Source: Squalus acanthias (lineage: Eukaryota). From it: a stretch of 64,000 nucleotides of DNA. The stretch is from positions 14,942,001 to 15,006,000 of the forward strand of contig CM059446.1 of NCBI GenBank assembly GCA_030390025.1, in the 5' to 3' direction. The notes under the pieces were generated by a model. That model had not been told where the DNA came from. It saw only the letters and a list, made by a program, of their open reading frames with translations, and searched no databases. Within the stretch, counting starts at the first letter, position 1. The number at the start of each line of letters is the position of its first letter. This document shows positions 3,243 through 18,900 of this stretch, piece after piece. The position numbers were made by a program, and so were the translations under genes.

Positions 3243-6089
3243 AAAGTGAGAAGTCACACAACACCAGGTTACAGTCCAACAGTTTTATTTGAAATCACAA
3301 GCTTTCGGAGCTGCTGCCCCTTCGTCAGGTGAAGTGAAGGAATACGAATCGGCAAAGCATATATAGACAGAGAACAATGCCTGTGTAGCGTACAATGTCA
3401 GACGACTACAGTTAATCTTTCTGACTGCCTTTTATCACACCTCGGCAGAGAAACAATCAGGAAGGCATTATATCAAAGACACAGCAAGATACAACTAAGA
3501 CAATGAGGTGGGGTCACAGGGGGTCTAATGTGTCAAATGCAGTCTGTATGGAAAACCATAAACTTAAAATTTTTTACTTTTTTTTACTGGAAATCACATC
3601 TGTGAACAAGCCAACGATGACTCGAGTCTGGATGACGCTACGTCATGTAGCGTGACATGAACCCAAGATCCCGGTTGAGGCCGTCCTCATGGGTGCGGAA
3701 CTTGGCTATCAGTTTCTGCTCGATGATTTTGCGTTGTCGTGTGTCTCGAAGGCCGCCTTGGAGAACGCTTACCTGCAGATCCGAGGCTGAATGTCCTTGA
3801 CTGCTGAAGTGTTCCCCGACTGGGAGGTAACAATCCTGCCTGGTGATTGTTGCGCGGTGTCAGTTCATACGTTGTCTCAGTGTCTGCATGGTCTCGCCGA
3901 TGTACCATGCTCCGGTGCATCCTTTCCTGCAACGTATGAGGTAGACAACGTTGGCTGAGTCACATGAGTATGTACCATGTACCTGGTGGGTAGTGTCCTC
4001 ACGTGTGATGATGGTATCTGTGTTGATGATCTGGCATGTCTTGCAGAGGTTGCCGTGGCAGGGTTGTGTGGTGTCGTGGTCGCTGTTCTCCTGAAAGCTG
4101 GGTAATTTGCTGCGAACAATGGTACTTTTGAGGTTAGGCGGCTGTTTGAAGGCGAGTAGTGGAGGCGTGGGGATGGCCTTAGCGAGGTGTTCGTCGTCAT
4201 CGATGACACGTTGAAGGCTGCGAAGAACATGGCGTAGTTTCTCCGCTCCGGGGAAGTACTGGACGACGTAGGGTACCCTGTTGGTTGTGTCCCGTGTTCG
4301 CCTTCTGAGGAGGTCTATGCGATTTTTCGCTGTGGCCCGTCGGAACTGTCGATCGATGAGTCGAGCGTCATATCCCGTTCTTACGAGGGCGTCTTTCAGC
4401 GTCCGTAGGTGTCCATCGCGTTCCTCCTCGTCTGAGCAGATCCTGTGTATTCGCAGGGCTTGTCCATAGGGGATGGCTTATTTAACGTGATTAGGGTGGA
4501 AGCTGGAGAAGTGGAGCATCGTGAGGTTGTCCGTGGGCTTGCAGTAGAGTGAAGTGCTGAGGTGTCCGTCTTTGATGGAGATTCGTGTGTCCAGGAATGA
4601 AACCGATTCTGAGGAGTAGTCCATGGTGAGTTTGATGGTGGGATGGAACCTGTTGATGCTATCGTGTAGTCCTTTCAGTGATCCTTCGCCGTGGGTCCAA
4701 AGGAAGAAAATGTCGTCGATGTATCTGGTGTACAGCGTTGGTTGGAGGTCCTGTGCAGCGAAGAAGTCTTGCTCGAACTTGTGCATGAAGATGTTGGCGT
4801 ATTGGGGTGCGAATTTGGTCCCCATGGCTGTTCCGTGTGTTTGGGTAAAAAACTGGTTGTCGAAGGTGAAGACATTGTGGTCAAGGATGAAGCGGATGAG
4901 TTGTAGGATGGCGTCTGGAGATTGGCTGTTGTTGGTGTTGAGTACTGAGGCTGTCGCAGCGATGCCGTCATCGTGGGGGATACTGGTGTAGAGTGCCGAT
5001 ACGTCCATCGTGGCGAGGAGTGTTCCTGGTTCAACTGGTCCATGGGTGCTGAGTTTCTGTAAGAAGTCTGTGGTGTTGCGACAGAAGCTGGGGGTTCCCT
5101 GTACGATGGGTTTCAGGATGCCCTCGATGTATCCAGAGAGGTTCTCACACAGGGTTCCGTTGCCTGATACGATCGGACGTCTGGGTGTGTTGGCTTTGTG
5201 TATCTTTGGGAGGCAGTAGAAGTCTCCCACGTGGGGAATACATGGGATGAGAGCGCGTAGGATGCTTTGAAGGTCTGGATCGAAGGTCTTGATCAGTCTA
5301 GAGTTGGCAGGTGTGTTCTTTGGTCGGATCTGTGGGTAACTGTCTGTGGTGTTCCAGGTTGTCCAGTTGTCGGTATGCTTCTTTGCAATAGTCCATTCTG
5401 TTCTGTATGACGATGGCTCCTCCTTTGTCCACTGGTTTGATGACAATGTTGCGGTTGGTCTTGAGAGCGTGGATGGCGTTGCGTTGTGCTCGGGTGACAT
5501 TCTGGACTGTCTTGTGAGTGCGGCTGATGAATCTGGCGTTGATGAATCTCCTGACAGCTTGAGCATACATGTCAAGCTTAGGGCAGCGACCCTCCGGAGG
5601 GGTCCAATTTGACTCTTTCTTCTTCGGTTGCTGCACTGCGAGTCCCTCTGTCTGCTGTTCCGGATCATTGATTGTCTCATTGGGTTCGCTGCCGACATCT
5701 TGGGATTCGTGGAAGAATTCCCAGATCCTCATTCTCCTGATGAATTCCTCTGTGTCTGCCGCGAGACCGATGGGGTCCATTTTGGTGGTGGGGCAGAAAA
5801 TGAGCCCTCGGCTGAGAACTTCGATTTCGTCTGGTTGAAGGGTGTGGTCGGACAAGTTGACGATGGACTTCCCTGTGGTTACAACCGTGGTACCGGGGGA
5901 GGCTTGGTTGCTGCTGGTGGTGATGCCAAGTTTCTCAAGCTTCCTGTTCTTGATGCGTAGTTCCGTTGCCTCGTCTGTTTGGCGGTGTCTCGTAGCTGGT
6001 CTGCTGTGTCCTGAGCACAGGCTGAGAGCATGGACTCTATCTTGGTTGCGAGGTTGCGGCGTTTGCTGTAGAGCTGGTGTACGAGATGG
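3243..6089 (-). mobile_element. Penelope-like retroelement (Neptune-type), 5'-truncated and disrupted; RT + GIY-YIG, with HHR-bearing 3' terminus
   Basis: RT motifs FYCLPKIHK, RPIVS, MDVSALYTSIP, GTAMGTKFAPQYANIFM, YTRYIDDIF and FLDT; Cys-rich linker PCHGNLCKTC; endonuclease VVYLIRCRKGC..WYIGET...GLNRD, stop at 3638. Lesions: frameshift ~5300, TAA 4478, TGA 3860. Flanked by TTCTCCCA direct repeats (3235-3242, 6090-6097). Confidence 0.92.
3295..3332 (-). ncRNA. Minimal type I hammerhead ribozyme motif in the PLE 3' terminus
   Basis: UCAC CUGACGA A GGGGC AGCA GCUCC GAAA GCUU GUGA: intact core, stems I and II, palindromic AAGCUU stem III, followed by AAUAAA. Confidence 0.85.
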
Positions 6090-6187
6090 TTCTCCCAGTT
6101 CAGGTATAGCAGTCAGATAAGTAAAACTCTCTGTAATCTGCCTTAATGTGCATCCAAGCACCTCTGCTGTAGCAGTGAGACTTTTCT

Positions 6188-15900: not shown

Positions 15901-18900
15901 CTACACTTTAAATATTGCAATTACACAAAAGTAGGGCGAATCTGCAATTCCCATGATACATCTCCACCACACACAGTTGCTCCACAGGGGCTGCAATGCT
16001 CTGGTCTATGCTACCTGGCTGTAATGACATGGGTGCTCCTCGTGTACTCTGGGTATTGTAGTCCCACAGGATCAGAACAAAAAGCAATGCCACGATGCAT
16101 CACACACAACGTCAAAAAGAGCACACAGGCCCAAGTTAAATTGTCAACTCAAGCAAGAGGTTCTCTAAATGGAGAGGCATACCAATAATAGCTCGTTTTC
16201 TTTCAGTTTCAGCCTCTTGTTCTACAACCTTTTGCCTCTGTGCGGAAATAAGCAACTTTGTCTTCTCTCCTTCCCTGAAAAACAATTTGCAAACAATGTA
16301 GAAACAACAAATCTCAGATGTCGACCAATAAGCCACAAACATTGCGTGCTGTAATATTGCTTCGGTCTACCAGATGAAAACCTGATAGATAAGTTTAGGG
16401 GGTCAATATTTGTACTCCAGGTGAGGAATTTCAGGGGTCAAAAACTATGATTTCTAAATCCAGTGGTGTGTGTGTGCACGTATTGACATGCAAATGAGCA
16501 ATCCATTTTGTATTACGCCCCAAGGTTAAAAACCTGCAGAACTTTGCTGACAGTGGCAGTCTTCAGAGGTCACAAACAGCCTGATTTTGAGGTTAAACAC
16601 ATTGATTACGTTCTCGCAACTCATACATGCTTATCGACTAGCTTATCTGTAGTCCAGCCGTAATGGGTACATTCTGCGCTTTGCTTCATCTAAACAGCAG
16701 TAGCCCCAGCTGGGCCATGGACGCGATTGATAAAAACTGGCACGAGCTTGTGCAAAGTGTGTAAAGATTATGGAATGTAGTTGGAAAGATAGAAAAAAAA
16801 GGGGAGAGACTGTAACGAGAGTTGGATGAAGATGATTTAGAAAGTTGAGCTCAACAACTACAACATGTGATCTTCTACAGCAAAGCATCGTCGTGTGTTC
16901 CAGGGAGTATGTTCATGTAACCATTAATAAACTTGTAAGTGTTGGACTTCTGCATCTCATTCCCAGTACATGAACAATTTTGTGGTGAAACAATAAATGC
17001 CAATGAAGAGCTGATCCAAGATTTACAGGAATAGCTTTGATACAGCTACTAATGCACATCATTTATGACGCAACCAACTTACATAAGTTCAAAATTTCTT
17101 CTAATTGCCTCTGGAATTTTAGGTTTTGTAACTCGAACTGCCTGTTGGTTCACAAGGAAAGTACAACAATTACTAAAAAAAATAAACCTTTCAACAGAGT
17201 CTCATATACAGTTCCAATGGTACATAAAATTCCCCAAGACTTCGGCATGTTAAATTGACCAATTCTCCCGAACTTAAATATCAAAAGTTCGATAAATCTC
17301 ATTACACTGCAAGGGACAAAACTCTCAAAGTTGTCTTCAAAAAACACTGAACATTTAAAATACCACACTGCCCAATATGCTTTCCCCCATATTTTCTTCA
17401 TGAAACCATTTGACAGCATAAAAAAAAACTTTAGATATGGAAATAATCACATCAAGTTCAGTTGGAATTCAATTAGGAGTAGAGGAAGTGAATCACAACT
17501 AAATTTTCATGGACACTCTACAGTTGTCGACGATATGCAAAGTGCACATCCAGTAGACCCCGACAAGGTATTGCAACATCAAGGAATGTTTTATTTACCT
17601 GTATTGTAAGGCCTGGTGCCATAGTATTCAAGTCTTTTTGTAAAGCCAACTTCAGGTTTTCATCTATTTGATCTGGAGCATAAATAACACAAAACGTATG
17701 AATATAACAAGGTTGGAACATGTTTGCATGCACTCATGTACCATATCAAACCATGATGCAGAGATGCCGGTGTTGGACTGGGGTGGACAAAAGTGAGAAG
17801 TTGCACACCACCAGGTTATAGTCCAACAGTTTTATTTGAAATCACAAGCTTTCGGAGCTGCTGCTCCTTCGTCAGGTGAAGCTTGTGATTGCAAATAAAA
17901 CTGTTGGACTATAACCTGGTGTTGTGCGACTTCTCACTCATATCAAACCATGTATTGTTCAAAATGCCAATGACCCTACTAAGATAAAACTTCTCATTTT
18001 AACTATCATTGGCCCACAGTTGGTGCTTCCACGTACTGCACGACAGCAGAGGCTCAGTATTCCACGTGAGGTCGGAGGGAAATTTGCAGCCAAGTCACAC
18101 TAGCTGCTCTCGCACCTCCTTGTGACCAGCTCACTCGCAGAGGTGCAAGATCAGGTCCCCAACCTGCCCCCTCAGCAAAAGAATGATGTGTAGGTTAGAT
18201 GAAAACCAAAATGCTGAGTAAAATTTAACATTTACTACACTACCATCTGTTCTTCCAATCTAAAGCATTTTGTTTGAAATGAAAGAAACTTATCAAAAGC
18301 AATTCCTCAAACCGATGTTCCTCTTCATGCCAACAGAAATTGACATGTCTTTTCATCTACAACTAATATAGTTACGGTTAACTGAATAATTTTAGTTTTT
18401 CACCTTTTAAAGTGAATACATTCAGTTTTTTTTTTTTTTTTTTACACGACTTGAGTGAACTCATTTTCACCTAGATTTACACATTACTAGGTTTTATAGC
18501 CCATATTTACAACTTTTGGCTGATTTCAACAATGTCAGTAATCAGAACTCATGGCCTGAAATAGTGTTTCATACTCCAGCAACAATCTTCCACTACAATT
18601 AAAGGTCTCTTCAAATTAAGATTAAACAACTCTCACCAAAGTATTCAATGTAGACCTCCTGCAAGGTGTGCACACTGCAAAACTGGTTCAACTCATGATG
18701 AATTTTGTTGAAAATCAATGTCTTGTCATAGTCAGCCGTGTAGTTCTTAGCGATATCATACACTAAAGGAAGCAAGAGAAGGTTTTACACATTTGTTCAA
18801 TACATCCTATTTTGCAGGTTAGAAACATGAAGTCCATATATTTGAATAATTTGGACGTTGGTACAAGAGGAATGATACAGAAATTTTTTGAATGCCAAAA

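Follow-up and report, generated by a model that had tools for sequence, protein, structure and literature searches.

Hammerhead ribozyme motifs in the pseudo-long terminal repeats (pLTRs) of metazoan Penelope-like elements (PLEs) were described by Cervera and de la Pena (2014, PMC4209133), and they combine a CUGANGA/GAAA core with an extra nucleotide before stem II, a G10.1-C11.1 pair and a palindromic stem III without a loop; most are single and tied to truncated PLEs, and some form close opposite-strand pairs. For the minimal motifs in the literature, cleavage is weak and requires either dimers or the help of protein (PMC4209133, PMC11167929). A hammerhead circle model for PLEs has been proposed (PMC4209133), and the in vivo role of the motif, as well as the regeneration of pLTRs and partial tandems, is stated as open in PMC4209133, PMC2377424 and PMC11167929. 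Insertions of canonical endonuclease-bearing (EN+) PLEs have a tail at one end, a head-to-head inverted arm, partial tandems and target site duplications (TSDs) (PMC8557442, PMC3846280). For Poseidon of Anolis (Frangieh 2024, PMC11167929), internal priming in vitro at both ends of the tail has been reported on uncut RNA, which is the main substrate, with no reads at the cut site, along with nicking of both strands and a dimeric protein model. Animal non-LTR retrozymes (PMC7229834; bioRxiv 10.64898/2026.07.22.740005) are non-coding, PLE-related and carry a type I hammerhead, and occur as head-to-tail tandem repeats of 150-450 bp yielding monomers and circles. Here we analyse a 64-kb stretch of the 3.7-Gb genome of Squalus acanthias (contig CM059446.1, positions 14,942,001-15,006,000; 'the window' in the following), which holds three hammerhead-bearing copies of one PLE family, together with a genome-wide map of where copies of this family end. 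The map indicates that the short copies, or stubs, are probably reverse transcripts of the 5' leader of the PLE messenger RNA, begun by internal priming at the tail, which adjoins the start codon, and finished some 125 bases further on by run-off at a 5' end that is uncut and likely capped.

Positions in the element are numbered from the predicted cleavage site, +1 being the first base 3' of the cut between GAAAGCUU and GUGA (window positions 3298, 15101 and 17845), so that core nucleotide C3 is -29. The family is abundant, with 33,886 exact tail matches genome-wide against 0 for a reversed control, and its intact natural open reading frame (ORF) is a single frame of 892 amino acids (aa) with a reverse transcriptase (RT) domain (RVT_1, E 2.7e-8) followed by a C-terminal endonuclease-like domain. 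The Pfam search of this ORF did not hit the GIY-YIG domain; the C-terminus is nearest to GIY-YIG clusters (0.96; family on 31-34% of members), gives a weak match to a phage endonuclease (E 0.021) and has visible VVY...YIG and CCHH residues. Its organization is that of an EN+ PLE, with RT and C-terminal GIY-YIG endonuclease in one ORF, pLTRs, tandems, a one-sided 30-40-bp tail and an inverted 5' copy. The ORF of the window and the intact unit both have a CX4CX2C motif between RT and endonuclease, where a CX2-5CxxC linker marks the Neptune/Nematis clade (PMC8557442), and the vertebrate host would favour Neptune over Nematis (PMC4209133; bioRxiv 740005). In intact units the tail runs from +56 to the ATG at +92. 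Judged from sequence identity the family is very young: units of one array have 0 differences across 3138 bp and 2 across 2559 bp. In the array at L320/L399, three full 3138-bp units stand between two partial ones; all are nearly identical, and both units that were read to the end keep an intact 892-aa frame. Element and motif belong to an already described kind, an EN+ PLE with a minimal hammerhead. The TATA plus TCACT initiator arrangement is shared with Adineta Pen2a, whereas the TSD mode is 12-13 bp instead of the 8-10 bp of the Adineta examples, and sharp-ended stubs predominate. As in Anolis Poseidon, two priming sites seem to bound the tail and uncut RNA seems to be the substrate; unlike that element, which is of a different clade, has its tail within the ORF and starts its ORF inside the hammerhead, the present one has a tail that stops at the ATG and a hammerhead in the 5' untranslated region (UTR). 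Compared with the motifs of PMC4209133, which it resembles in all the features listed above, the one studied here has mapped ends, a CUU or CUC cleavage triplet, a putative position 7 nt behind a cap, and stubs that start upstream of the cut.

The main sample consisted of the first 100 exact tail matches, picked irrespective of their 5' ends and mapped onto 21 natural long copies, which as references are not independent of one another; 26 of 30 loci, left after removal of three duplicates and one unaligned locus, formed a second sample. Another 30 loci, from a first genome search that is biased by the ends of its query, served for layout only and not for counts. When 175 arms were pooled, the hazard of 5' ends (the chance of ending per base) was 0.13% at +3 to +30, 0.6% at -2 to +2 and 1.0% at -27 to -13, rose to 2.8% at -32 to -28 and 6.4% at -38 to -33, and fell back to 2.2% at -46 to -39 and 0.5% at -70 to -47, positions -36 and -35 holding 12 ends each. 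The second sample agrees, with 9 arms stopping at -28 to -41 and 12 passing. The sequence-only reading from which this analysis started had taken the short copies for something other than random 5' truncations, and a smooth spread of breakpoints would have spoken against it; the ends instead peak sharply at the 5' edge of the ribozyme. It had also proposed that the ribozyme defines the RNA end, and this part does not hold, as the ends accumulate 33-38 nt upstream of the cut, with no sharp peak at the cut itself. Cleavage after GAAAGCUU would moreover remove the CUGA core and stem II, which both stubs of the window retain, and cut-derived RNA is therefore not their source. Near the cut, starts counted by eye on the first 100 of 1271 genome-wide junctions fell at -1 (10), 0 (14), +1 (19), +2 (15), +3 (9), +4 (16) and +5 (6), with 11 indels, and +1 did not stand out against +1 to +4 (p=0.23); a minor class of cut-derived ends may nevertheless be present among these junctions.

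The base at -36 is the A within TCACTTC or TTACTTC; 18 of the 21 natural long copies have a TATATA whose first base lies 30-33 nt upstream of it. Across the genome, ACTTCACC at -36 is preceded by a base other than C in 4571 matches, about a third of these bases being a templated T, while 765 end two bases further in (-34) and 14,216 read through; in the first 100 of the 4571 the preceding base was G in 54, T (including the templated variant) in 32 and A in 14. A control at -38 (1155 matches) was set aside as confounded, several of its matches being the reverse view of symmetric -36 junctions, that is, junctions in which both arms end at -36. Within the subfamily with a templated T at -37, the central base of such symmetric junctions was G/C in 40 of 50 and A/T in 10 (p=2e-5). 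An extra G is known as a mark of capped full-length L1 insertions (PMC11702581), and a similar TATA-TCACT pair has been noted in an Adineta PLE (PMC3846280). From these sequence features, a capped transcription start at -36 is likely rather than established. Four insertions in different subfamilies and orientations (L160, L161, L166, L169) share a junction in which an untemplated TG precedes -36, suggestive of a cap-C plus an added A. Several points count against the assignment. The start is read from the sequences of genomic copies, and the peak is spread over -28 to -41 instead of occupying a single base. The share of G before -36 (54/100) is close to that before -34 (49/100) because the partner arms are G-rich, and does not discriminate; by eye, 6/19 and 2/16 G's are unexplained by partner arm or target, but so are 3-4/12 C's, and most G's can equally be read as microhomology. 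The 50 symmetric junctions may include duplicates and copies of a C-templated variant, and all 100 matches of the main sample come from one contig end, with a few duplicates among them. A TATA layout is also not general among PLEs, since Penelope of D. virilis has a TATA-less internal promoter (PMC2377424).

The features of the three window copies are as follows.

3243..6089, minus strand: copy 1, a 5'-truncated, tail-less Neptune-type PLE, 92% identical to the intact 3138-bp natural unit
3235..3242 (left) and 6090..6097 (right): probable 8-bp TSD of copy 1, 2 nt overlapping the element
3638..6089, minus strand: broken ORF remnant of copy 1, residues 72-892, with RT, CX4CX2C linker and GIY-YIG endonuclease, the last assigned from the intact relative
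3358..3365, minus strand: TATA-like box TATATATG of copy 1, beginning 30 nt upstream of the putative start, its position kept in natural long copies
3331..3337, minus strand: initiator-like TCACTTC of copy 1, the A at 3335 (-36) being the putative transcription start
3295..3332, minus strand: copy 1 hammerhead, minimal type I, with cleavage predicted between 3299 and 3298
3284..3289, minus strand: AAUAAA, predicted as a possible poly(A) signal 3' of the copy 1 hammerhead
15013..15130, minus strand: copy 2, a single-arm stub from core C3 (-29; with 2-nt microhomology to -31) to the tail end (+89)
15098..15134, minus strand: hammerhead of copy 2, the target site supplying the 5' strand of stem I
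15013..15046, minus strand: PLE tail of copy 2, +56 to +89; in intact units the tail ends at the ATG (+92) of the ORF
14999..15012 and 15131..15144: 14-bp TSD of copy 2
17756..17881, minus strand: tail-bearing arm of copy 3, -35 to about +90, containing the complete hammerhead (17842-17879)
17879..17938, plus strand: inverted tail-less arm of copy 3, -5 to about +55, without the CUGA core
17742..17755 and 17939..17952: 14-bp TSD of copy 3

All three minus-strand cores, CUGACGA...GAAAGCUU, lie where they had been placed by the sequence-only reading (3295-3332, 15098-15134 and 17842-17879), with the stem II pairing it gave, the AAGCUU palindrome, and AAUAAA 9-14 nt behind the predicted cut. Equally borne out are the 14-bp TSDs and the insert lengths of 118 bp for copy 2 (15013-15130) and 183 bp for copy 3 (17756-17938), the repeats partly overlapping the element ends. 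Of the two short copies that it described as hammerhead-only mini-insertions, copy 2 is a single-arm stub; copy 3 is instead a head-to-head palindrome of a tailed and a tail-less inverted arm, which meet via a 3-nt microhomology within the AAGCTT palindrome. The 2.85-kb PLE said to be capped by the first motif does span 3243-6089, but it is a 5'-truncated remnant without the tail and without residues 1-71 of the 892-aa ORF, and has frameshifts near 5960 and 5300 and internal stops at 4478-4480 and 3860-3862. Truncated, broken and dead, it cannot have mobilised the short copies, as had been supposed; these stubs are the front end of a very abundant PLE.

The copies carry minimal type I PLE hammerheads as had been claimed, with core, stems I and II and palindromic stem III. 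From one subfamily to another, stem I and stem II have both changed in a compensatory way (C-G to U-A in each), N7 varies freely (C, G, A or T), and in 22 selected variants, which are related and were picked by the core pattern, 98% of cells pair, against 24-51% in slid controls, with 8 two-sided changes at 2 of 9 pairs. This pattern indicates conserved structure, not activity. An Rfam scan of the window, the check with curated hammerhead models that had been suggested, returned no hammerhead match at E<=1; a microRNA match in the same scan is driven by the palindrome hairpin of copy 3 and was discarded. Monomer folding energies are ordinary (z -0.55 to -1.05) and uninformative. Subfamilies represented by L042, L051, L073, L094 and L194 have a CCGACGA (U4C) core and yet a compensatory U-A pair in stem II.

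TSDs of 12-14 bp flank 63 of the 95 scorable insertions, against 6/936 in a shuffled-partner null, and 79 of the 100 insertions have an adjacent inverted head-to-head piece, 70 of these pieces ending at +50 to +61. Overall, 3' ends fall at +52 to +60 or at +88 to +103, and stubs, measuring up to about 130 nt and sharply delimited on the 5' side, make up two thirds of the tail arms. The likely mechanism is the following. A TATA/initiator promoter in the pLTR would start the RNA at -36, making the hammerhead the first structure of the mRNA, with the ATG at +92 behind this leader. Priming at about +52 to +60 would give tail-less arms and priming at about +88 to +98 tailed arms, as the published priming sites, matched to the ends found here, suggest. 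The inverted second piece would likely reflect priming from both nicked strands, microhomology joining then trimming the ends back into the hammerhead, and the stubs, lacking the TATA box, would be dead ends. Within single insertions, a diagnostic base in stem II or at N7 often disagrees between the two arms (L005-L030, a set biased by the query; L263-L265, L267 and L269), as if each arm had been copied from a different RNA molecule. Four insertions (L310, L311, L333, L355) have 3' ends 160-300 nt behind the cut and both arms starting within the tail (+56 to +71), which could be very short products of priming further into the ORF. A possible second hot spot of 5' ends lies about 205-212 nt behind the ATG, where three independent ends fall within 8 nt and a fourth 27 nt further (window position 6089, L055, L178, L408). 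Many independent insertions with differing 5' ends (L175, L177, L179, L180, L187, L192, L195) went into the same target site, which lies in a different high-copy repeat, presumably an antisense CR1 ORF2; the site was found in 32 of the first 100 matches of a search whose pattern enriches for such a site. A second recurrent target site, AT-rich, is used by L050, L073, L080, L097, L296 and L300. The sequence ATGACCTCCCC 3' of the tail, considered as ORF read-through, was rejected as such and is a recurrent target site.

Which RNA was copied can be addressed through the 89 copies in which the tail continues into the ATG, of which 28 reach no more than about 500 nt beyond the cut (109-505 nt) and 61 go on at least 0.5 kb into the ORF. 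An arm ending at -28 to -36 occurs in 11 of the 28 short tail-to-ATG copies, so some stubs derive from ORF-bearing RNA. Among ORF-continuing copies that reach -28, only 1 of 49 stops at -28 to -41 and 48 pass, against 31 stopping and 35 passing for tail-ended arms (p=1e-8); the contrast persists when the tail-ended arms are restricted to the T-type subfamily, 13 of them stopping and 27 passing (p=8e-5). L055, which continues into the ORF, was removed from the tail-ended set, and three ORF-continuing ends at -208 were scored as passing although they resemble a subfamily deletion rather than true ends. Were the template a linear capped RNA transcribed from a short array or a partial tandem, a stop at -36 would be expected in a third or more of cases, and the single stop in 49 makes it likely that the long copies come from a template without this end, circular or multi-unit. 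Strong-stop jumping on linear mRNA, which should leave a second stop at -36, was rejected because such a stop occurs in 1/49. Tempering this, the part of the ORF followed in the ORF-continuing copies was 0.5-1.5 kb long, and some of these copies are members of tandem arrays. Two such templates, which genome sequence does not tell apart, can be envisaged: a unit-length circle produced by hammerhead cleavage and ligation, or a long RNA that reads through from large arrays or from promoters of the host. Arrays of at least 20 units, acting as masters, would account for the 1/49 without any circle. We tentatively propose, at rather less than even confidence, that the family uses two templates: capped uncut leaders, giving tens of thousands of 5'UTR stubs, and a 3.1-kb unit that hammerhead dimers would excise from tandem read-through RNA and that, once closed into a circle by ligation, would undergo rolling reverse transcription, giving ORF-spanning copies, partial tandems and perfect arrays.

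Other sources of the stubs have to be weighed against a leader copied from the ORF-bearing mRNA. The same capped start could be used by truncated copies that keep their promoter (TATA box, hammerhead, tail and host DNA) and that would supply most stubs in trans as a diffuse non-autonomous source. About a third of the tail arms do reach past the TATA box, exact tail-to-ORF junctions number 535 against the 33,886 tails, and pLTR-driven mobilisation in trans has been described in Adineta (PMC3846280); however, the 3' ends of short arms enter the ORF start (+88 to +103) as often as those of long arms, and the 28 copies that extend 109-505 nt past the cut required ORF-bearing templates, so that we consider this source unlikely. 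A stall of the RT on ordinary long RNA, at the folded hammerhead or dimer, with stem microhomologies fixing the junctions and no involvement of an RNA end, is quite improbable: junctions often use stem microhomologies (GAAG/CTTC, AAGCTT, TGA) and the hazard is rising already between -3 and -27, but the peak lies beyond all helices, which the enzyme would already have opened, ORF-continuing copies traverse the same fold with a stop in only 1/49, and the extra central G/C would be unexpected. Least probable, and largely refuted as the main source of stubs, is the model of the sequence-only reading, in which hammerhead cleavage sets the end of a short RNA or retrozyme-like circles are mobilised in trans, since against a motif conserved with compensatory changes, 5/100 tail arms beginning at -1 to +2 versus 0 at +3 to +18, and +1 being the largest single near-cut class (19/100) stand the retention of sequence upstream of the cut, the flat near-cut starts (stem-I microhomology explaining 5 of the 19 at +1), a hazard at the cut a tenth of that at -38 to -33, and alignments of 100 loci in which tandem small repeats are absent and junctions do not recur. 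A retrozyme origin, in particular, does not agree with stubs that occur singly or as head-to-head pairs, are each flanked by a separate TSD and do not extend from one cut to the next (5' ends at -28 to -41, 3' ends at +52 to +60 or +88 to +103), with 53 junction kinds among 57 two-armed stubs; head-to-tail small repeats were absent from the window copies and the 100 sampled loci, no genome-wide tandem search having been run.

The host gene context of the window copies is approximately as follows.

9750..23050, minus strand: Erlin coding exons, near 23014, 21954, 18697, 17673, 17138, 16267, 13647 and 9854

Copies 2 and 3 are intronic, and copy 1 lies about 3.5 kb beyond the Erlin coding span, the last coding exon found being that near 9854. 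By sequence the paralog ERLIN1 is favoured but not settled, the scores being split (one exon 82 bits for Erlin-2 vs 80, another 33 bits for Erlin-1 vs 30). The three copies had been described as all sense to ERLIN1; three out of three is a matter of chance, as tail orientation is even genome-wide (16,960 forward, 16,926 reverse), and copy 3 also has an inverted plus-strand arm. Copy 3 (17756-17952) forms a hairpin with 71-bp arms about 60-80 bp upstream, in gene sense, of the Erlin exon near 17673-17690. Elsewhere, the window contains a large inverted pair of LINE-like fragments at 53458-55538 (183 nt at 85%, plus further arms), a GC-rich 26-bp tandem at 35978-36072 and a three-copy repeat of 104-132 bp at 36318-36694.

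We found no comparable map of PLE ends in the open-licence literature, although supplements may hold such maps, as for example Fig. S2 of PMC11167929. The value of the present analysis lies in the end map, which for a family with about 34,000 tails yields predictions at single-base level: a capped start at -36, priming at the ends of the tail, a circle of 3138 nt and, should the motif cut, a capped fragment of 36-37 nt. If true, the proposal of two templates would provide genomic support for the long-proposed role of the PLE hammerhead and for the origin of pLTRs.

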